Assembly: GCA_002281475.1 (NCBI GenBank)
Contig: NCGC01000001.1
Location: 21,264-85,263 of the forward strand
DNA: 64,000 nucleotides
Source: Methylophilales bacterium 28-44-11
GTDB lineage: Bacteria; Pseudomonadota; Gammaproteobacteria; Burkholderiales; Methylophilaceae
Reading direction: 5' to 3'
Shown one piece after another: positions 3,408-46,063 of the stretch. The notes under the pieces are model-generated. The model saw only the letters and a program-made list of their open reading frames with translations, was not told the origin of the DNA and ran no database searches. The position numbers were made by a program, and so were the translations under genes. The first letter of the stretch is position 1. The number at the start of each line of letters is the position of its first letter.

Positions 3408-3608
3408 ATGTGGATTAAAATTGCAACAGTACTTGTGTTAATCATCATCATCAGCAGTCTTTTTTCGGCACTTTTCTTTTTAATCAAAGACAAAAGCGGA
3501 AATAATCGTACTGTAAAAGCTTTAACCGTGAGAATCGGACTATCCATTACGCTGTTTGTTGGGCTGATTATTGCAGCCTATTTCGGACTGATTGGGCACT
3601 CATTGTAA
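3408..3608 (+). CDS. DUF2909-type twin transmembrane helix small protein
   Basis: SLFSALFFL..RTVKALTVRIGLSI; typical opposite-strand position between coxC and SURF1. Confidence 0.85.
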   Translation: MWIKIATVLVLIIIISSLFSALFFLIKDKSGNNRTVKALTVRIGLSITLFVGLIIAAYFGLIGHSL

Positions 3609-3642
3609 TGTAATCGATTTATTGACTAAGGCACGTAAATGC

Positions 3643-3672
3643 AAAAGGGCGATGCAACAGCATCGCCCTTTT
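3643..3672. terminator. bidirectional intrinsic terminator
   Basis: AAAAGGGCGATGC-AACA-GCATCGCCCTTTT between convergent genes. Confidence 0.85.
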
Positions 3673-3684
3673 ATCTTGTATCAA

Positions 3685-4596
3685 TTAGAGCATGTATACA
3701 AAGATGAACAGACCCAACCAAACCACATCGACAAAGTGCCAATACCATGCAACACCTTCAAAACCAAAGTGATGTTCAGGCGTAAAATGACCCTTCATAC
3801 AACGCAACAAAATAACAATCAACATCAATGTACCAATGGTGACATGAAAACCATGGAAACCAGTTAACATGAAAAAGGTTGCGCCATATGCACCACTACC
3901 CAATGTTAAGCCCATTTCGGTATAGGCATGGTGATATTCCAAACCTTGGCAAATCAAGAAGGCAATACCCAACGCTACGGTTAGTGCCATACCAATAATT
4001 AATTGCTTACGGTTGTTTTTGATTAAACCCCAATGCGCCCAAGTAATGGTAGCACCAGAAGTCAATAACAAAATTGTATTGATCAGTGGTAAGCCCATCC
4101 AGTGCATCGGTTTGAATTCTGGGTTTGGCGCATATTCAGCTCCAAGTACATTACCGCCAGGACCTTGTGAAGGCCATACTGCTAAAAAGTCTTTGTAAGG
4201 AGTAATGTCTGGTGAGTAACTTGCCAAGTCTGGCACGGATAAAATACGCATATAAAACAATGCACCAAAGAATGCAGCAAAGAATGCAACTTCAGAAGCA
4301 ATAAATACCACCATACCGATACGGAACGATTTGTCTTCCCAGCTTTTGTATTTGCCGGTAATACTCTCAGTGACTACCGTACCAAGCCATTTGAACATCA
4401 TAAACAACACGACAGCTAAACCGAAATACATCATCCACTTACCAGGACCTTCAAGATAAGCCAATGAATTTCCACCGCGATCAGTCGCCACAGAAAAAAC
4501 AAAGCCAGCGGCCATCGACAACAAACCTGCTGAAAGTATGGAAGGGTATACACTTCCATGAGGAACGAAATATTGATTTTCTGAATGTGTTGCCAT
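3685..4596 (-). CDS. coxC: cytochrome c oxidase subunit III
   Basis: FIASEVAFF, TGFHGFHV, WYWHFVDVVW. Confidence 0.96.
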   Translation of the reverse strand: MATHSENQYFVPHGSVYPSILSAGLLSMAAGFVFSVATDRGGNSLAYLEGPGKWMMYFGLAVVLFMMFKWLGTVVTESITGKYKSWEDKSFRIGMVVFIASEVAFFAAFFGALFYMRILSVPDLASYSPDITPYKDFLAVWPSQGPGGNVLGAEYAPNPEFKPMHWMGLPLINTILLLTSGATITWAHWGLIKNNRKQLIIGMALTVALGIAFLICQGLEYHHAYTEMGLTLGSGAYGATFFMLTGFHGFHVTIGTLMLIVILLRCMKGHFTPEHHFGFEGVAWYWHFVDVVWLGLFIFVYML

Positions 4597-4656
4597 GTGC
4601 TAACTCCCAAGCATACTAATATTTATATTTAACAACGATTAAGTTATTGCTTTTCC

Positions 4657-4701
4657 CACTTCACTTACTAACACTTCACTTACTAACACTTCACTTACTA
4701 A
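4657..4701. repeat. tandem repeat 3 x 15 bp (CACTTCACTTACTAA)
   Basis: three perfect copies at 4657, 4672, 4687 in the ctaG-coxC spacer. Confidence 0.95.
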
Positions 4702-4713
4702 TTTGTGACTTTC

Positions 4714-5271
4714 CTAATTTAATGCTTTCTGATCTGGTGCTTTAAAAAAAGAGTACGACAATGTCATTTCTTTCACATCATCAGGCAAATCAGGACTTAC
4801 AAAAAATCTTAATGGCATTTCTTTAGTTTCACCAGACTTAAGTGCTTGGTTGACGAAACAAAAACATTCAATCTTTTTCAAATGACTTGAAGCTTTACCC
4901 GGTGTCACACTTGGCACCGCTTGACCAGACACTGTTTCACTGGTCGTATTTTTTGCTACAAAAATAACTGTTTCAATTTGTCCAGGATGCAGTGTGATAC
5001 TTGTTTGCTTAGGGTAAAAGTTCCAGCCTAACCCGGGCATCACTGCAGAAACAAATTGCACAGTAACCACTCGAGTGTTATCTACTTTAGCCTTTGCTAA
5101 CGTCGCAGCGGTATTATCAGTTTTACCATTTAATCCAGTGATCGAACAAAGCACGTCATACAATGGCACCAACGCAAATGCAAATAGCAAAGATCCAATG
5201 ACCACATACAACACTTTTATGGCTAATTTTTTGTTAGCTTTTTGTTGCTTTGTAGGTTGACTATCCGTCAA
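4714..5271 (-). CDS. ctaG: cytochrome c oxidase assembly protein CtaG/Cox11
   Basis: VPLYDVLCSITG, KIECFCF; exact start uncertain. Confidence 0.95.
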   Translation of the reverse strand: MTDSQPTKQQKANKKLAIKVLYVVIGSLLFAFALVPLYDVLCSITGLNGKTDNTAATLAKAKVDNTRVVTVQFVSAVMPGLGWNFYPKQTSITLHPGQIETVIFVAKNTTSETVSGQAVPSVTPGKASSHLKKIECFCFVNQALKSGETKEMPLRFFVSPDLPDDVKEMTLSYSFFKAPDQKALN

Positions 5272-5313
5272 TGTAGTTACTTCAATTCTTTACAAAAATT
5301 AATCAAATTGAAT

Positions 5314-5427
5314 CTAATGATTCCACACGGTAAAGATAGAAGCTACATACCAAACAAAAACAACTGCACCGATAATAAATGCAATTTTCTTATTACTAGA
5401 ACTTCTGGTTGCGTCTTTTTGTTTCAT
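5314..5427 (-). CDS. 37-aa single-TM small protein (putative oxidase small assembly protein)
   Basis: hand translation MKQKDATRSSSNKKIAFIIGAVVFVWYVASIFTVWNH*; lies between coxA and ctaG; below ORF track cutoff. Confidence 0.75.
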   Translation of the reverse strand: MKQKDATRSSSNKKIAFIIGAVVFVWYVASIFTVWNH

Positions 5428-5471
5428 TTGCAATGAGGCTTAGCATTGCTAAGCCTCTTATACCTTTATGA

Positions 5472-7064
5472 TTATTTAATTACAGGTTGCTCATTAAAGC
5501 TATGGTATGGCGGTGGTGAAGATAAAGTCCACTCCAAACCTTCTGCGCCTTCCCATACTTTATCGGTTGCTTTCTGACCACCCTTGGCACACATGATAAT
5601 GTTATAAACGAATAACAATTGTGACAAACCTAGGATAAATGCACCTACCGTTGAGATCATATTGAACTCAGTAAACTGCAAGGCATAATCTGGAATACGA
5701 CGTGGCATACCAGCTAAACCAACAAAGAATTGTGGAATAAAGGTTACATTGAATGAAATTGCAGTTAACCAGAAATGCACTTTACCCAATTTTTCGTTGT
5801 ACATATGTCCGGTCATTTTTGGTAACCAGTAATATACACCTGCCATGATACCCATAATGCCGCCAGCAAAGAGTGTGTAATGGAAGTGCGCTACCACAAA
5901 ATAACTATTATGGTATTGCGCATCTGCGGCAACGTCAGCAAGTACCAAGCCTGTTAAACCACCAATACCGAATAAGATAATCCAACCTACTGCAAACAAC
6001 ATTGGCGTTTCGAACGACATGGAGCCTTTCCACATGGTTTTAATCCAGCAGAAAAACAACACAGCTAGTGGAAGCGAAATCGCCATGGTGCTGTACATAA
6101 AGTAAAGCAATGCTGGCACCGGCATACCTGCAGTAAAGAAGTGATGCGCCCAAACAACCACAGCTAAAGCGCCAATCGCCCATAGTGAGTACACTTGTGC
6201 TTTGTAACCATACATCGGTTTACGTGAGAATGTTTGCAAGATTTGTGGAATAAAGCCCCAAACCGGCAATAACAAAATATACACTTCTGGGTGACCAAAG
6301 AACCAGAATAAATGCTGGAACATGATTGGGTCACCACCACCAGCTGCATCAAAGAAATGCGTACCAAAATGACGGTCTGTTAATAACATGGTCACAGCAC
6401 CCGCTAATACAGGAATTGTTGCCACTAACAAGAAAGCTGTAATCAACCAACCCCAAGCAAACATTGGCATTTTCATTAATGTCATACCAGGCGCACGCAT
6501 GTTGAACAGTGTCACAATGATGTTAATTGAACCCATTACTGAAGACACACCCAACAAGTGCACTGCAAAAATCGCAAAGTCCACACCAATACCGCCTTGC
6601 ACTGAAAGCGGTGGATAGAATGTCCAACCAGTCGCTAAGGCGCCATCACCAATCCCAAATAAAGCGAGCGTAAATGGCAGCGTGAGTAAAATGGCTGACG
6701 GTGGCAATAACCAAAAGCCCCAGTTATTCAAACGGGGTAATGCCATATCTGGCGCACCAATTTGTAACGGGATCATCCAGTTTGCAAAACCCGTAGCTGC
6801 TGGCATTAAAGCAGCAAAAATCATAATCAGGGCATGCACACCGATCAATTGGTTGTAAAAGTCTGGGTTCATCAATTGCAAGCCTGGTCTAAACAACTCA
6901 GCTCGAATACCCAAAACCATCAAACCACCCACTAAAAACATCACCAAAGAAAAGGTTAAATACATCGTACCAATGTCTTTGTGATTTGTTGTTGTCAACC
7001 AACGCATAATACCAGTTGGGTGATCACTGTGCTCTTCATGATGCGCTACAGTTGTAGTACTCAT
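5472..7064 (-). CDS. coxA: cytochrome c oxidase subunit I (A1-type GHPEVY; atypical K-channel)
   Basis: TTNHKDIG, GHPEVY, WAHH, AHFHY, GMPRR. Confidence 0.98.
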   Translation of the reverse strand: MSTTTVAHHEEHSDHPTGIMRWLTTTNHKDIGTMYLTFSLVMFLVGGLMVLGIRAELFRPGLQLMNPDFYNQLIGVHALIMIFAALMPAATGFANWMIPLQIGAPDMALPRLNNWGFWLLPPSAILLTLPFTLALFGIGDGALATGWTFYPPLSVQGGIGVDFAIFAVHLLGVSSVMGSINIIVTLFNMRAPGMTLMKMPMFAWGWLITAFLLVATIPVLAGAVTMLLTDRHFGTHFFDAAGGGDPIMFQHLFWFFGHPEVYILLLPVWGFIPQILQTFSRKPMYGYKAQVYSLWAIGALAVVVWAHHFFTAGMPVPALLYFMYSTMAISLPLAVLFFCWIKTMWKGSMSFETPMLFAVGWIILFGIGGLTGLVLADVAADAQYHNSYFVVAHFHYTLFAGGIMGIMAGVYYWLPKMTGHMYNEKLGKVHFWLTAISFNVTFIPQFFVGLAGMPRRIPDYALQFTEFNMISTVGAFILGLSQLLFVYNIIMCAKGGQKATDKVWEGAEGLEWTLSSPPPYHSFNEQPVIK

Positions 7065-7108
7065 AATGCTCTCCTAATCGCCTTCAGAACTATTTAAAAA
7101 ATACAAAA

Positions 7109-8275
7109 TTACTCACGTGCCGCTTTTACTTGAGCAGGTTGCACAATTGGATCTACTGTAGCAGCATTGCCAAGCGCTTGTCTTTCATAGGTAATGACTG
7201 CAGCTATTTCTGTATCGTTTAATGTAGCTTTCCATGCCGGCATCATGCCTTTACCATTCAACAAACGATCCATGTGACTGTCTTTTAAATATTTGCCGTC
7301 GGCGCCAAATACTGGGCCTAGAGCAATTTTGCTTCCTGTTAACGCAGGGAATGCAGGTGGTAAACCAGCACCTGATACTTGATGGCAAACAGCACAATTT
7401 TTCTCATAGACTGTTTTACCGAGTGCAACCAAATCATCTTTGGTCATTTCTTTGATTTCATTTGCGGCTTTTTGCTCTTCTTGTTTTTTCGCAGCCCATA
7501 CTTTGTATTCCTCCATTGGCACTGCATTGACAACAACTGGCATGTAGCCATGACCTTTACCACATAATTCTTTACACTGTCCGCGATAAGTGCCCGCTTT
7601 TTCAACTTGCACCCATGTTTCACGAATAAAGCCAGGTACTGCCACACGTGAAGAACCAAACTGTGGAACCCACCAGTTATGTAACACATCTGAAGCGGTC
7701 ATTAAAATACGGACTTTTTCACCAACTGGTAGCACCAAAGGATTGTCCACTTCTAATAGATAGTTTTCGCCTTTTTCAGCCTTGTTATGTAATTGATCAT
7801 CCGAAGTGGTGAGATTACTTACAAATTTAACACCTTTGGCATCACCATCTAGGTATTCATACTGCCAACGCCATTGCGAACCAGTAATCTTAATCACCAT
7901 GGTTGATTTGTCACGTGTATCTTCCATCATCACCACACTGTGGTAGGCAGGAATACCCATGATGACAAAGTCAATCAACAGTAAAATAGCAAAAGGAATA
8001 AGGGTCCAGAAAATTTCAACCGCTGTTGATGGTGCCTTATCAGCAACCGCTTGATAACCTTTGCTTTTACGATGTGCAAAGATTGAGTAAATCATGATAG
8101 CCAATACCGCGAAGAAAATAATCGCGGTAATAATCATAAATTTATTGTGTACATGCAATGTATCTAACGCCATTGGAGTCACTGGCTCAGGAAAGTTCCA
8201 ACTGTAATCCGCAAACACATTGAGCGAAGCCAGCAATCCCGCCAAACCTACCCCAATTTTTTTAAACACTTGCAT
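7109..8275 (-). CDS. coxB: cytochrome c oxidase subunit II with fused C-terminal cytochrome c (caa3-type)
   Basis: CuA motif H...CKELCGKGHGYM; CAVCH heme c motif; GGAG RBS before MQVFKK. Confidence 0.96.
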   Translation of the reverse strand: MQVFKKIGVGLAGLLASLNVFADYSWNFPEPVTPMALDTLHVHNKFMIITAIIFFAVLAIMIYSIFAHRKSKGYQAVADKAPSTAVEIFWTLIPFAILLLIDFVIMGIPAYHSVVMMEDTRDKSTMVIKITGSQWRWQYEYLDGDAKGVKFVSNLTTSDDQLHNKAEKGENYLLEVDNPLVLPVGEKVRILMTASDVLHNWWVPQFGSSRVAVPGFIRETWVQVEKAGTYRGQCKELCGKGHGYMPVVVNAVPMEEYKVWAAKKQEEQKAANEIKEMTKDDLVALGKTVYEKNCAVCHQVSGAGLPPAFPALTGSKIALGPVFGADGKYLKDSHMDRLLNGKGMMPAWKATLNDTEIAAVITYERQALGNAATVDPIVQPAQVKAARE

Positions 8276-39837: not shown

Positions 39838-40703
39838 TTACTTTTTTAACTTTTTATTCTTACGAACACTTTTTGGCGGAGGCGCCTCATCTTGCTCACC
39901 ATCGTCCTCCTCACCTTGCACCGCTAAATTGCCACCTGCGCCAAGGCCACCTTTCACCGTTTGTGTTTTGTTGTCTTTGACTGCGCGCACAATATTATTG
40001 TATGTATCAGTAAATGCCGCCACAATCACTTTACCTCTTGGGGTTTTAGAATATCCGCCAGCCGTAACGCCTAAAGAGCTCCTAAATGCACCGCCAAATA
40101 TACTGTAATCTGTATTTTGGCGCTACCTTCTGCCGATGCCAATTGCACACTTGAACGGTTATCCGATAAGGTTAGCATGGTGCTGGCTTCTACAAACTTA
40201 AGACCACCAGCTAACAAGCCTAGCCAGCCAGCGCCATCACTTGATAGGGCAAATAGGGCTGCACCAACACCACCCGTATCGCTGTTGCTAAAAATGATGG
40301 AAGGATTTATCGCATAATCCGCCGCTACAATTTGACCTTTGTGCAATTTACTAGTATTACGCATCTCGCAAGTGTCATTTAATGCGCGTTCGGTCATGCC
40401 CATTTGCAAGACTGCACCACGGTCCACCAACACGAAGCTGTTGGATTGCTGTACCAGCCACTTCATCACAGGGTCGGTTGAACCCAATATTTAAGTATGT
40501 GTTAATAGGCTGCAACAATCAGAATTTTGATCTTCAATCACCGCTAACGTAGCAATGGGACGATCACAATGTTCTAATTTTGCATTGGCATTCTGTACGT
40601 TGCTACCACCTGCTGAAACAGTTGCTACGGTTTTAGCCCCTGCATCGCCCCATGCTCATCTGCCCAGCACAACTGGCTAGATATGCGTTGTTTATTTAAT
40701 CAT
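39838..40703 (-). pseudogene. fragmented CsgG/HfaB-family lipoprotein gene
   Basis: consecutive fragments in different frames: LASCAGQMSMGDAGAKT..LEHCDRPIATLAVIED / QQSNSFVLVDRG..KGQIVAADY..AEGSAK / GGYSKTP..AAFTDTYNN. Confidence 0.75.
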
Positions 40704-40984
40704 TTAGGAATACAGTTACTGAATGCGTGGCTAGTCATTTACGATGATGTTCCATTTAGCACCATCGTTTAAAGTTTAAATTCTCAGATGTACTTTGATA
40801 TCCAATTCATTGGTATTTAAATTTACATACAAGTGATTACCTTGATAAATTTATATTGCATCTAAGTTAAAATAAGTAATAGATATGATCATTCCATATT
40901 AATATTTGGTTTTAATAATTAAACATCACCATATGATCACTTCCCCACTCTTTTCAACTTATAACCACCTCTTTTGGCATTAAT

Positions 40985-43900
40985 ATGCTTTCTTCCAATC
41001 AAATATCGTTGAATCAAGAAAGGTATCTAATTGCAGAGGAATTTACGCATACTAACTACACGTTAACAGTGAGTTATAGAATAAAAGGCAGTTTAGATTC
41101 AGAGAAGTTATTAGCATGTTTTCAAAGAGTAGTAGATAACAATGATGCGTTAAGAATCAAATTTAGCAAAAATGCTAATGGCGAGATATCCCAACATCTC
41201 ATGTCTAGCAACATCATTAAATACGACCTTCAAACACTTAGTACAGCAAGTCATGCACAAATAAAAGACATTATTCACGATTATTTTTATACTAAAAATA
41301 TAGTATTTGATGTGTTTACCACTAAATGTCAATTGCTTAAAATCAATGAAACTGAACATATTTTAACAATTGGATGCCACCATAGTTTGATGGATGGTCT
41401 TTCCATCGCTGTTCTAATGATGCAACTGGCAAAGGCATGGAATCAAAACAAAACAATACTGACCTCTTCAGGAAAATATCTAGACCTTCTCAATGAAAAT
41501 GGCCTGTTAAATCCATCTCATGAAACATTACAGGTGGTCAGCGCATATTGGAAAAATTATTTATCGAATGCAAATCCGGCAGTCCTTCCAAATGACTACA
41601 AATTAAATAGCCATCATAATGAAGACAAAGCACGCGCAAAACGATTAATTACAAATGAAGTCATTGAAAAAGTCGATGCCTTTGCAAAAATACATGACGT
41701 TTCAAGATTTCATGTGTTTTATTTAGCATTCAAGATACTAATTGCCAAACAAAGCGGAGCTACCGATGTCATCACCTCATTTGAGAGCCACGGCAGACAA
41801 GACTTAAAAAACGCTAGCAGAGCCATTGGTTTATTTTCTAACGCTTTGGCTTTAAGGTTACATGTGAATGACGAAGCGACCATTCACCAACTTTTGAACG
41901 ATTTAAAAATTGATGCTGAACAATGTATTGCACATCAGCTTTACCCTTATCAATACATTATTAAAGATGCCAAGATAAATCCGAAATATTCCTTTAATTG
42001 GTTCCCCAGATATTTACCTCCTAAACTAAATGGCTTGGAAATCACGCAAGAGGAGTTTCTTAACTTACAGTCAAGTTTTGACTTGAATTTACATTGCTAC
42101 ACCTATGATGATGGCATTAGTCTTGAGTTTTTTTATAATCCGACACTGTTTAGCAACAATCGCGTAGAAATTCAGCTGGAGCAAATAGAAAACATCGTCC
42201 AACAAATCATAGCAAACCCAACTCAGAAAATATCAAACGTCAAACTCATTAGCGATCAAGATAAACAATCTTTGCCTGACGTTAATTTAATTTTTGCAGA
42301 AAAAATCAACAAAAGAATAGACGAGGCATTCCTCCAACAAGCTTCAGTAAATCCTCAAAAAATTGCTTTGAAGTACCTAAATTTGGACTGGACATACGAA
42401 GAAGCGGAACAGGTGAGCAACAGGCTGGCGCAACTGCTAATCAACAAAGGGTTAGTGGCTGGAGATAAGGTGGCCATTTTGGGTTTGCGTTGCCCCGCCA
42501 TGATTATGGCTATGTTAGGGTCATTGAGAGCTGGTGCATCGTTCACTGTGTTAAACGCTGCGTATCCTGTCGCAATGATAAAAAATTATTGGGATACGCT
42601 TCATCCAGATTTTTTAATTACTTGTGATCAAGACTTGTCATCGGCTGAATTTAATTTTGTTAAATCACTTGATACAAAACTTGTGCAATTAGATGATGTA
42701 CTGAATATCAATGATTCACGATTAACCTCAGTGGGAGATCAAAAAGACTCCATCCCTCCAGCAACGCCAAACACTACCGCTTATTATTTGTTTACGTCTG
42801 GCACCACTAACGCACCTAAATGTATTGCGACCACACATTCCCCACTCGTACATTTTGTAGATTGGCAGATAGAAAAATTTAAAATAGGTTCAGAAGATCA
42901 GTTTACGTTGCTGTCTGGTATCTCGCATGACCCAGTTTTAAGGGATATTTTTACTGCATTAAGTGCTGGGGCGACCATCCTTATTCCGACAGAGGATGTC
43001 ATCTTTAATCCAGAAATGTTATACCAGTGGCTACTTAAAACTAAACCCACTATTTGTCATACAACGCCTGCAATGAGCAAGCTGATGTATAACGGCTTTA
43101 ACAAAAAAGATTATATTGTTTCTTTAAGAGCCATCTTTTCTGGTGGCGATCGGTTGGAAAGTCAACATATTAAAGAGATGATGACGATGGCTCCAAACGC
43201 CAGCATCATTAATTTTTATGGCGCTTCAGAAACACCGCAAGCCATGGCATACCATCCATTTGATAACGCATCACGAGGAGAAATCATTCCTATTGGCAAG
43301 CCGATTTCAGATACGCAAATTTTGGTGCTTAATCACAATCTTAACCCTGTGGGGTTATTTGAAATCGGCCAAATAGCGGTCAGAACAAAGTATCTTTCTG
43401 AAGGGTATGTTTCTACGCAGAACACAGAACATTCAGAAAATAAAAAGGCTTATTTAAAGGATTTATTCTCTGATGACCCAGAGATAAACATTTATTTGAC
43501 TGGTGATAATGGCTATTTCAGAGCTGATGGCAGTGCAGTATTTTTAGGTCGCAATGATGATGAAATAAAAATCAGAGGTCACCGAATCAATTTAAACGTC
43601 ATTAACAACAACATTAAAGTGATTCCTTTTGTTGAGGAAGCCTTTACATTTGTAGTGGATGATATCAGTGCCTCTACTGACAAAAAACGTTTGGTTGCCT
43701 ACGTACAAAAAAGTAAAACCTCTAACATGACCGCCATTGAGATTCGCAATAAGCTTTCTGAGTTATTGCCTAGCTACATGTTGCCCAGCCATTTTGTGTT
43801 TATTGAACAACTGCCCCTACTGCCCAATGGAAAAGTAGACCGGAAAAAACTGATTTCTACCTATATTGAACATGACAGTATTAGGTTAAATAAACACATT

Positions 43901-45109
43901 GCAGGCAGAAATGAGGTAGAAAATAATCTCATTTATTCATGGGCAAAAATTTTAAACATCAACCCGAGACAAGTGAGTGCTAAAGACAGTTTTACCACCC
44001 TAGATGGAGATTCTCTCTCCTTCATTCAGGCCTCATTAGTGTTAGAGCGTGAAATTGGAAAGATTCCTGAGGGTTGGCAATCACTCTCGATCGAAAAACT
44101 AGCAGAAATCAGTTATCAAGAACAAAAAAAACTAGATTTTCATACCGAAGTGTTGTTTCGTGCGATCGCCATTATTTTGGTTGTGATTGGTCACTTTTGG
44201 ATGGGTAATACCAACAAGCAGATAGAAGAACTATTTATTAATGCAACTTCTGCCTTACTGTTAATTGCAGGCTTCACATTTGCCAACTTTCCGATGAAGT
44301 CTATTCAGTACAAAAATAATATCTCACCTATTCTAAAAACAATCATACGCATTGCAGTACCAACCTTTTTAGTGACGCTGGTGCATGTTATTTATCGGTC
44401 AGATTATTCAATCAGTAAATTATTGTTTTTTGATAACTTTCACTGGGCACAATCACCCTATTGGTTTATTGAAGTATTGCTCCAGACGTTATTACTGGTT
44501 GCAATCATTTTTTCATTTAAACGCATACGGGCATTTGCAATTAAAACACCTTACCATTTTGGATTGATATCTCTATTTATATTTGCTCTTGCTGGCATGA
44601 TAATTCCATATTTTTGGTCACCTAATGACCTTAATCCTATGCAATTACCCCACATGAAGTCGTGGTTGTTTTTCTTTGGATGGTGCATTTTTTACATACA
44701 AGATAATCAACAAAAACTCACAATGGCAGCACTTGGCGTGATATTACCTATCATGATATTAGGTCAAATTAGTGTGCTTACATCCCTCTGTACATTACTT
44801 TTGATTTATATGCCAAAAATCAACATACCAAAAACGAAGCTAACCAGTGTATTGCATATGGTGATATACGCTGTGGCTTCTGCATCCCTTTATATCTACA
44901 TCACCCATATGCAATTTAGAGCGGTTCTTCACGCAATCGGATTTGATCAGTTTATATTGATTGATGTTGCAGTTGGTTTAGCGGGTGGCGTTTTGGTTCA
45001 CTATATTTGGCATTCCTTGATAGCTTCTACAGCAAGAAAAGTTGTGTCGCATATCAAAAACAAAGTAAATCTAATCAGCACTAAATTGGTGGGCAGGCGT
45101 TTGAGCTGA
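40985..45109 (+). CDS. single-module NRPS-like protein: condensation, adenylation, thiolation and C-terminal acyltransferase-3 membrane domain
   Basis: HHSLMDG; FTSGTTNAPK, YGASE, TGD, KIRGHRI, NGKVDR; LDGDSL; FRAIAIILVVIGH..SLYIYITH multi-TM tail. Confidence 0.88.
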   Translation: MLSSNQISLNQERYLIAEEFTHTNYTLTVSYRIKGSLDSEKLLACFQRVVDNNDALRIKFSKNANGEISQHLMSSNIIKYDLQTLSTASHAQIKDIIHDYFYTKNIVFDVFTTKCQLLKINETEHILTIGCHHSLMDGLSIAVLMMQLAKAWNQNKTILTSSGKYLDLLNENGLLNPSHETLQVVSAYWKNYLSNANPAVLPNDYKLNSHHNEDKARAKRLITNEVIEKVDAFAKIHDVSRFHVFYLAFKILIAKQSGATDVITSFESHGRQDLKNASRAIGLFSNALALRLHVNDEATIHQLLNDLKIDAEQCIAHQLYPYQYIIKDAKINPKYSFNWFPRYLPPKLNGLEITQEEFLNLQSSFDLNLHCYTYDDGISLEFFYNPTLFSNNRVEIQLEQIENIVQQIIANPTQKISNVKLISDQDKQSLPDVNLIFAEKINKRIDEAFLQQASVNPQKIALKYLNLDWTYEEAEQVSNRLAQLLINKGLVAGDKVAILGLRCPAMIMAMLGSLRAGASFTVLNAAYPVAMIKNYWDTLHPDFLITCDQDLSSAEFNFVKSLDTKLVQLDDVLNINDSRLTSVGDQKDSIPPATPNTTAYYLFTSGTTNAPKCIATTHSPLVHFVDWQIEKFKIGSEDQFTLLSGISHDPVLRDIFTALSAGATILIPTEDVIFNPEMLYQWLLKTKPTICHTTPAMSKLMYNGFNKKDYIVSLRAIFSGGDRLESQHIKEMMTMAPNASIINFYGASETPQAMAYHPFDNASRGEIIPIGKPISDTQILVLNHNLNPVGLFEIGQIAVRTKYLSEGYVSTQNTEHSENKKAYLKDLFSDDPEINIYLTGDNGYFRADGSAVFLGRNDDEIKIRGHRINLNVINNNIKVIPFVEEAFTFVVDDISASTDKKRLVAYVQKSKTSNMTAIEIRNKLSELLPSYMLPSHFVFIEQLPLLPNGKVDRKKLISTYIEHDSIRLNKHIAGRNEVENNLIYSWAKILNINPRQVSAKDSFTTLDGDSLSFIQASLVLEREIGKIPEGWQSLSIEKLAEISYQEQKKLDFHTEVLFRAIAIILVVIGHFWMGNTNKQIEELFINATSALLLIAGFTFANFPMKSIQYKNNISPILKTIIRIAVPTFLVTLVHVIYRSDYSISKLLFFDNFHWAQSPYWFIEVLLQTLLLVAIIFSFKRIRAFAIKTPYHFGLISLFIFALAGMIIPYFWSPNDLNPMQLPHMKSWLFFFGWCIFYIQDNQQKLTMAALGVILPIMILGQISVLTSLCTLLLIYMPKINIPKTKLTSVLHMVIYAVASASLYIYITHMQFRAVLHAIGFDQFILIDVAVGLAGGVLVHYIWHSLIASTARKVVSHIKNKVNLISTKLVGRRLS

Positions 45110-45138
45110 TTAATTATCCAATTCAACGATAAAAGTAA

Positions 45139-45822
45139 ATGACAGAACAAAAAGCTGGGCAACTCCACCCCTCTTGGCAAGCCATCATTGGCCACGAGCT
45201 TGATAAACCCTATATGCTAGCCTTGCGCACTTTTTTAAAACAAGAAAAGGCCGCTGGAAAAGTCATTTATCCGCCCAGTGCATTAATCTTCAATGCATTC
45301 AATCACACCCCTTTTGATCAGGTGCGCGTAGTGATTATTGGGCAAGATCCATATCATGGCCCTAATCAGGCACACGGCTTAAGTTTTTCTGTACCCAATG
45401 GAGTGGATTTACCACCGTCCCTACAAAATATTTTTAAAGAAATTTCTGCCGATTTAAATATTCAAATGCACCGTCATGGCGACTTAACGCCTTGGGCGGA
45501 TCAAGGTGTGCTTTTGCTGAATGCCACGCTCACAGTGGAGCAAGCCAAAGCTGGCTCTCATCAAAATAAGGGATGGGAGCAGTTTACTGATGCGGCCATT
45601 GCTGCATTAAACGAACATCGTGAGGGCTTGGTCTTTGTATTGTGGGGTAGTTATGCGCAAAAAAAAGGTGCCATGATTGACGATAACAAGCATTTAGTTC
45701 TGCAATCTGTGCATCCTTCTCCGTTGTCAGCGCATCGTGGCTTTTTTGGCAATCATCAGTTCTCAATGATCAATCAATACCTAACGAATCACGGCCAAAT
45801 ACCGATCCAATGGCAGCTTTAG
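45139..45822 (+). CDS. ung: uracil-DNA glycosylase (family 1)
   Basis: GQDPYH, GVLLLN, HPSPLS. Confidence 0.98.
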
Positions 45823-45916
45823 GCTTTAACCTCTGCAGTACCTTAGTCAAACTTCTTGTCATCACATAACAACTTGTTTACACTTTGCTGATTATCGCTG
45901 CTTGCATGCAATAGAC

Positions 45917-46028
45917 AAAAAAAACCCCGATTAAGGGGATTAAATCGGGGTGAACTGCCTCATCGTCTAAGGCTTCCGCTCAGGGAGGAAAGAAGCGGAA
46001 AGATGGTAAGCGTTAACTTATCCATCGT
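45917..46028 (-). ncRNA. candidate small RNA with anti-SD loop and intrinsic terminator
   Basis: three hairpins, loop UCUUUCCUCCCUG, terminal ACCCCGAUU..AAUCGGGG-U8, upstream ECF-like promoter. Confidence 0.65.
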
Positions 46029-46034
46029 ACATTC

Positions 46035-46063
46035 TATGACTAAGCCTATTTAGGCTTAGTTCC
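46035..46063 (-). promoter_or_regulatory. sigmaE/ECF-like promoter
   Basis: GGAACT-N17-GTCATA on minus strand; spacer is a palindrome. Confidence 0.55.

Follow-up and report, generated by a model that had tools for sequence, protein, structure and literature searches.

Acidic residues linked through their side chains are known from products of nonribosomal peptide synthetases (NRPSs). The methyl-Asp of microcystin (D-erythro-beta-methyl-iso-Asp), loaded by the second adenylation (A) domain of McyB (McyB-A2), is iso-linked. The Glu module of McyE/NdaF, which provides a gamma-linked D-Glu, has the pocket code DPRHSGVVGK, and ACVS-A1 has EPRNIVEFVK. The fungal Lys2 A domain carries the code DPRHFVMRAK, along with the motifs SGxxHDPxxRD and H-x-TPAM. 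Furthermore, residue 1 of prezeamine has been identified by NMR as a 'gamma-aspartate', i.e., side-chain-linked Asp (PMC5811116). The present study compares with these systems P0001, a protein of 1374 amino acids (aa) encoded at 40985..45109 of a 64,000-nucleotide stretch (hereafter, the window) of Methylophilales bacterium 28-44-11 DNA.

The open reading frame (ORF) of P0001 has a stop-free translation, and the whole of it encodes a fusion with the domain order Condensation (C), A, carrier (T), and Acyl_transf_3 (AT3). All its features are given below on the + strand. The A domain has the pocket code DPRHFGFQAK, and we conclude with modest confidence that it activates an acidic amino acid through the side-chain carboxyl. 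The membership of this pocket in the D-x-R-H class and the side-chain-linked products of the anchored members of that class support this part of the initial annotation. Its choice of 'Glu or aminoadipate' was not supported; Asp is equally precedented. We favour Glu (possibly D-Glu) over Asp, and Asp over aminoadipate, although the three are not separable here.

Pocket code and the D-x-R-H class

The A domain of P0001 covers residues 451-960 (42335..43864; Pfam AMP-binding 451-808 and AMP-binding_C 880-950) and belongs to the NRPS/ANL adenylases by score (PF00501, 201 bits; TIGR01733, 288-292 bits). The A4 region LSGISHDPVLRDIF (residues 643-656; 42911..42952), located by string match and by LgrA and McyB alignments, contributes D649 (42929-42931), P650, and R653 (42941-42943), which correspond to GrsA positions 235, 236, and 239. 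H692 (43058-43060), equivalent to GrsA 278, lies in CHTTPAM (residues 691-697; 43055..43075), and F718 and G720 (GrsA 299 and 301) lie in IFSGGD (residues 717-722; 43133..43150). The A5 motif NFYGASETPQAM (residues 743-754; 43211..43246) provides F744, Q752, and A753 (GrsA 322, 330, and 331), and the A10 motif GKVDRK (43829..43846) provides K950 (GrsA K517). The four motifs quoted by the initial annotation from A4 to A5 are thus all present at nt 42911-43246, inside the P0001 ORF and inside the interval 42900-43260 that it had claimed.

The Stachelhaus positions, mapped by BLAST register onto P0001, read DPRHFGFQAK, identical to the code derived earlier by hand, which was therefore in the correct register. 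Applied to the other A domains among the matches (more than 100), the same script returned textbook codes (DAWFLGNVVK, DILQLGLIWK, DVWHFSLVDK, DFWNIGMVHK, DLYNLSLIWK, and DVGEIGSIDK), and the recovered codes cover Leu, Gly, Ser, Thr, Cys, Orn, Val, Tyr, Asn, and Gln types. For proteins named McyB by their sources, it read the second A domain as DARHVGIFVK. In HMMER alignments to the solved LgrA and McyB chains, H-D-P-V-L-R of P0001 faces F-D-x-x-x-(W/L). P0001 accordingly carries the D-x-R-H ('HDP') residues Asp235, Pro236, Arg239, and His278. The string S-G-x-x-H-D-P-x-x-R-D was found in 47 of 211 fetched proteins, every one of them in a single clade; therefore, it is no chance feature.

The phylogeny of the A domains separates this class from the canonical one. 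FastTree analysis of 136 A domains placed every D-(P/A/V)-R-H domain in one group, split from the canonical domains with a support of 98; the same split had an SH-aLRT of 99 in an IQ-TREE of 55 A domains. The canonical side of the trees holds Leu, Gly, Ser, Thr, Val, Cys, Gln, and Pro types. Within the D-x-R-H group, one branch consists of McyB-A2 (DARHVGIFVK) and the DPRHLALLAK domains, while the other (support 99) comprises all domains with F-x-F-Q-A at positions 299-331, including P0001. The AT3-fused proteins are nested within the latter, beside modules of multimodular NRPSs. P0001 thus groups with McyB-A2 and with proteins having the Zmn16-A1 code, in trees that contain neither McyE, ACVS-A1, Lys2, nor Zmn16 itself (Lys2 was placed by a profile score ratio only). 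Clustering with neutral amino-acid domains, on whose absence the initial annotation had staked its proposal, was seen in neither tree, and the pocket stands outside the neutral alpha-amino-acid and fatty-acid adenylases, in a coherent clade. The F-G-F-Q-A pocket is a new, strongly conserved form of the known D-x-R-H class.

The exact code DPRHFGFQAK occurs in 44/54 AT3 fusions (A-T-AT3 or C-A-T-AT3), whose A domains have a median identity of 40% to that of P0001, and in 20 of the 32 non-AT3 domains of the F-x-F-Q-A sub-clade; these relatives were collected via shared 5-residue words from the pocket region, a route that may make the code look more invariant than it is and to that extent weakens our case. 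P0013, collected through C-domain words and 28% identical, has the identical code. The non-AT3 domains are mostly modules of multimodular NRPSs, many of them with a C domain before and T-TE after. The best 120 matches listed in the A-region word search were all bacterial. A representative search with P0108:1120-1640, ranked by whole-protein score, matched giant NRPSs of 4,300-7,900 aa. D649 and K950 are invariant across the relatives.

Motifs A4 to A10 of P0001 are intact and agree with the family consensus. The single deviation is in the A3 P-loop FTSGTTNAPKC (residues 603-613; 42791..42823), whose third Gly is replaced by Asn. In the alignment of relatives, this position is Asp in the eight closest homologues (P0003-P0010) and Gly in all remoter ones; the Asp/Asn substitution is common to the whole clade at 62-71% identity. 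The change counts against our interpretation of the domain. Because it is clade-wide and everything else is conserved, it would appear to be tolerated.

Substrate and orientation of binding

Two anchored relatives carry the argument for the substrate. Module 1 of Zmn16, the zeamine/fabclavine NRPS, shares with P0001 D-P-R-H at positions 235, 236, 239, and 278 as well as A331 and K517, and domains with its code form a sister branch of that of P0001 within the same D-x-R-H clade. The residue in its product is the side-chain-linked Asp of prezeamine (PMC5811116). The two differ at positions 299-330, which read L-A-L-L in Zmn16-A1 and F-G-F-Q in P0001, and in their setting, module 1 of Zmn16 being the starter of a soluble hexamodular assembly line whereas P0001 is an AT3 fusion. 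McyB-A2 likewise falls in the D-x-R-H clade, has R239 and H278, and gives an iso-linked acidic residue in its product; it differs from P0001 in having A236 instead of P236, and the identity is about 28%. McyE/NdaF, if its code is as given above, shares D-P-R-H, G301, and K517 with P0001 and differs at 299, 322, 330, and 331.

R653, H692, and Q752 are the cationic and hydrogen-bonding residues of the pocket code, and judging from the sequence, such a site would suit a carboxylate. D649 and R653, one helical turn apart, could clasp the ammonium and carboxylate of a distal head group. Since the exact code is found in elongation modules behind C domains, the substrate must have a nucleophilic amine, which argues against a plain dicarboxylic acid.

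In our view, it is accordingly very unlikely that a dicarboxylic or hydroxy acid without an amino group (as in a succinate- or malate-like acyl) is loaded for O-acylation. An Arg/His pocket does suit a distal carboxylate, and succinyl transfer is known for some AT3 enzymes. There are also AT3 fusions whose adenylase is acyl-CoA-synthetase-like: an AT3-domain-only search recovered P0362-P0374, proteins of 800-890 aa that join such an adenylase (no D235) to a carrier (GGDSL) and to an AT3 domain that shares 23-31% identity with that of P0001. However, these acid-type fusions use an unrelated adenylase lacking D235, whereas D649 is invariant among the relatives of P0001, and an amine nucleophile is needed both in the elongation modules with the same code and in the C-A-T-AT3 proteins with an intact HHxxxDG. 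The occurrence of two unrelated adenylase classes in such fusions indicates that the adenylase-carrier-AT3 design formed with both. A literature search for adenylase-AT3 fusions returned nothing relevant.

Binding in the normal orientation has to be weighed more seriously, although we consider it rather unlikely. In this case, a small polar or acidic amino acid (Asp, Asn, Glu, or Gln) would be activated at its alpha-carboxyl, R653, H692, and Q752 would contact its side chain, and the product would be an ordinary alpha-linked aminoacyl group. D649 and K950 are invariant, and in GrsA-type domains their counterparts are the canonical ligands that bind the alpha-amino group and the alpha-carboxylate; the intact C domain and the use of the code in elongation modules fit such binding equally well. 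Besides, a survey lists DPRHVSLLAK among 'Asn-activating' domains (PMC12283262). In contrast, the nearest anchored relatives yield side-chain-linked residues, and the canonical Asp/Asn/Glu/Gln codes (DLTKxGxxGK and DAWQFGLIDK) fall on the opposite side of the tree.

The retention of both canonical ligands and the survey entry also weigh directly against side-chain activation by P0001, together with several further points. D-P-R-H may not always be a sign of side-chain activation, i.e., the class rule may have exceptions, and for no member of the F-x-F-Q-A sub-clade is the substrate known. No solved structure was found with an HDP-type A4-A5 region, the best match (50 bits) reading FD, and DPRHFGFQAK is absent from the searchable literature. 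Furthermore, no glycan genes adjoin the P0001 gene in its own genome. Searches for DPRHSGVVGK, DPRHFVMRAK, and EPRNIVEFVK found no relevant paper with these codes, D-P-R-H strings were likewise absent from the supplementary data of the code survey, and a feature search of the ESM Atlas gave generic 'AMP-binding' clusters only.

The affinity of the pocket to Lys2, noted in the initial annotation, was borne out by hidden Markov model (HMM) scores. On the P0001 A domain, TIGR03443 (Lys2) scored 266 bits against 292 bits for the generic TIGR01733, a ratio of 0.91, compared with about 0.5 in ordinary Leu and Gly domains and 0.51 in McyB-A2. The ratio was 0.90 for the A-T-AT3 relative P0150, 0.76 for the DPRHLALLAK type, and 1.17 for module 2 of P0108, which has the same code as P0001 and for which the Lys2 model was the top match (460 bits). 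The bacterial F-x-F-Q-A clade seems to stand closest to the fungal Lys2 A domain, and this nearness bears on the origin of Lys2.

P0001 is not a Lys2 orthologue. TIGR03443 is its best-scoring specific NCBIfam model, but the match (residues 189-913) reaches 340 bits against an equivalog cut-off of 1030 and ends at residue 913. Neither NAD_binding_4 nor any other reductase match was obtained with Pfam or NCBIfam; where Lys2 has its reductase, P0001 has the PF01757 membrane domain. The C domain of P0001 is catalytic by its HHxxxDG motif, which the N-terminal domain of Lys2 is not known to have. TIGR03443 positions 2-270 align with P0001 residues 189-440, starting from the second half of the catalytic C domain. 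This alignment is consistent with Lys2 having inherited a C domain from a bacterial C-A-T ancestor and having kept it, truncated, as its N-terminal domain.

Considering this affinity, the P0001 A domain could be a bacterial counterpart of Lys2/ACVS-A1 chemistry that loads delta-(alpha-aminoadipyl) specifically. The leading position of the Lys2 model among specific models and the seven of ten code positions shared with Lys2 (D-P-R-H-F-x-x-x-A-K) speak for it; on the other side stand position 330, which is Gln in P0001 and Arg in Lys2, the low equivalog score, and the missing reductase. NRPSpredictor has called the related Zmn16-A1 code DPRHLALLAK '2-aminoadipic acid' (PMC3547906, Table 2). The same prediction was wrong for Zmn16-A1, whose residue is Asp (PMC5811116), and the software call of aminoadipate for D-P-R-H codes is therefore unreliable. 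No supply genes for aminoadipate (lysine aminotransferase or others) or for methyl-Asp were seen beside P0001 or beside two multimodular NRPSs with the same code, which makes the common metabolites Glu and Asp more plausible than aminoadipate. We regard aminoadipate as clearly unlikely.

Fused domains and proposed mechanism

The C domain occupies residues 8-430 (41006..42274; Pfam, 197 bits), with HHSLMDG at 41378-41398. Among solved structures, ordinary elongation C domains (TycC and LgrA) match it best, and HHxxxDG is retained in all 22 C-A-T-AT3 relatives. The carrier domain (43907..44104) was recognized by conservation and by LgrA alignment, in which the phosphopantetheine attachment residue Ser1010 (44012-44014), within LDGDSLS, aligns with GGDS; PF00550 gave no match passing E 0.001 on P0001. 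F1003, G1008, and S1010 are invariant in 54/54 relatives, as are R1059, H1070, W1160, G1232, and G1335 of the AT3 domain. The latter is a membrane domain spanning residues 1057-1357 (44153..45055), with a PF01757 score of 46.1 bits (cut-off 31). R1059 (44159-44161) and H1070 (44192-44194) lie in its first helix; as in OafA-type enzymes, we take H1070 to be the catalytic His. No solved chain matched the AT3 domain in sequence.

In the mechanism that we propose, the A domain would select an alpha-amino dicarboxylic acid and adenylate its side-chain carboxyl, with D649 and R653, assisted by H692 and Q752, holding the alpha-amino-acid head group at the distal end. The acyl group would then move to the phosphopantetheine of Ser1010, and the intact N-terminal C domain would probably first acylate the free alpha-amine. 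Finally, the fused AT3 domain would take the acyl group from the CoA-like phosphopantetheine arm to an extracytoplasmic acceptor, probably a hydroxyl of a surface glycan. Whereas the motifs, the code, the clade, the conservation, and the intact catalytic residues are observed, we infer which substrate is taken up, at which carboxyl it is activated, what accepts the acyl group, and what the C domain does. P0001 thus probably places a Glu- or Asp-like group on a cell-surface sugar polymer. The free alpha-carboxyl, as proposed in the initial annotation, could alter surface charge; the C domain may also acylate the alpha-amine, which would alter the net charge. A frame of 223 aa, of the size of a Sfp/EntD phosphopantetheinyl transferase (G000:C93:1474-2145, - strand, L017; PF01648, 49 bits), is the likely activator of the carrier domain. 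An AcpS-sized frame of 138 aa lies on contig C216 of the same genome.

P0001 resembles the Dlt system (DltA, DltC, DltB, and DltD) in mechanism only. In both, an adenylase would feed a carrier thioester and, through it, a membrane acyltransferase acting on an envelope polymer, and DltA models score 230-238 bits on the P0001 A domain. P0001 differs in being one polypeptide, in its pocket class, and in its extra C domain, and its membrane part is AT3 (PF01757), non-homologous to the MBOAT domain of DltB. No separate carrier or DltD-like gene adjoins P0001. The AT3 O-acyltransferases of the OafA and OatA type share with P0001 a PF01757 score above the gathering threshold and the first-helix Arg/His. 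These enzymes use acyl-CoA and are often SGNH-fused, whereas the donor in P0001 would be its own carrier-bound acyl.

A wider proposal, which we put forward tentatively and regard as somewhat doubtful as a whole, is that DPRHFGFQAK is the signature of a widespread, so far unassigned A-domain specificity for side-chain activation of Glu/Asp. The AT3-fused form would then be a thiotemplated system within a single protein, by which exported glycans are esterified with acidic amino acids in iso-linkage; these would be N-acylated wherever a C domain is present. Functionally, it would be the Gram-negative counterpart of Dlt, except that the group added would be zwitterionic or anionic and not cationic. 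If the class rule holds, the type of substrate could be assigned from a conserved ten-residue code for dozens of NRPS modules at least that otherwise resist annotation, among them the A-T-AT3 and C-A-T-AT3 fusions that several phyla have in their polysaccharide and flagellin-glycan loci. In the same case, an iso-linked acidic aminoacyl ester would be predicted as a new envelope decoration.

Genomic setting and distribution

Among the relatives' loci examined (n=9), four are glycan clusters. L003, L005, and the contig of P0139 hold EPS or O-antigen-type clusters with glycosyltransferases and Wzy, Wzx, Wza, or Wzc genes. In L005, a metagenomic locus, a C-A-T-TE gene with a Gly code (DILQLGMIWK; 3480-7385) lies 2.6 kb upstream of the C-A-T-AT3 gene with DPRHFGFQAK (L005:10001-14038), and a glycosyltransferase and a UDP-sugar dehydrogenase stand between the two NRPS genes. 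The fourth cluster, L018 (from a Kofleriaceae metagenome-assembled genome), has an A-T-AT3 gene with the same code (L018:9001-11739) in a flagellin/nonulosonic-acid glycosylation island that contains flagellins, FliD, FliS, DegT, NeuB, CTP_transf_3, and an MptE-like gene. One of the nine loci is syntenic with the window (groEL, NRPS, ung, and uvrD), and the remaining loci are stand-alone.

In the window, P0001 lies among housekeeping genes, with groEL on its upstream side and ung 30 nt downstream, followed by a UvrD-type helicase. P0001 is the only NRPS found in this 88%-complete, roughly 2.2-Mb betaproteobacterial genome. Its gene was present in three of the 25 genus genomes searched, its own included, and is thus an accessory gene. 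The closest named relative, from an unclassified betaproteobacterial metagenome-assembled genome, is 67% identical and keeps the placement between groEL and ung. Taken with the low GC content of the gene and its presence in few genomes, this suggests that it was acquired long ago and later lost in places, or that insertion took place more than once at the same site. In an ammonia-oxidizer check, the amoA family was not found, and the control of this check was uninformative.

The sparse distribution, together with the GC content of the gene (0.375-0.40 against ~0.44 around it, within window positions 40000-46000), could also be read as a sign of decay. In that reading, the gene would be a degenerating remnant of horizontal acquisition, whose A domain is catalytically impaired by the P-loop Asn (FTSGTTNAPKC instead of TSGTTGxPK). 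We find this extremely unlikely: the ORF is intact over 1374 aa, the P-loop substitution is shared across the clade while the other motifs, the carrier Ser, and the AT3 Arg/His are conserved, and a relative likewise has its gene between groEL and ung.

Downstream of the P0001 gene, at 45917-46001 of the window (- strand), Rfam RF02837 (anti-hemB small RNA, Burkholderia RNA 7) matched with 59.3 bits against a gathering threshold of 49.5. This match gives a name to the 'unannotated sRNA' that had been noted earlier at 45917-46063.

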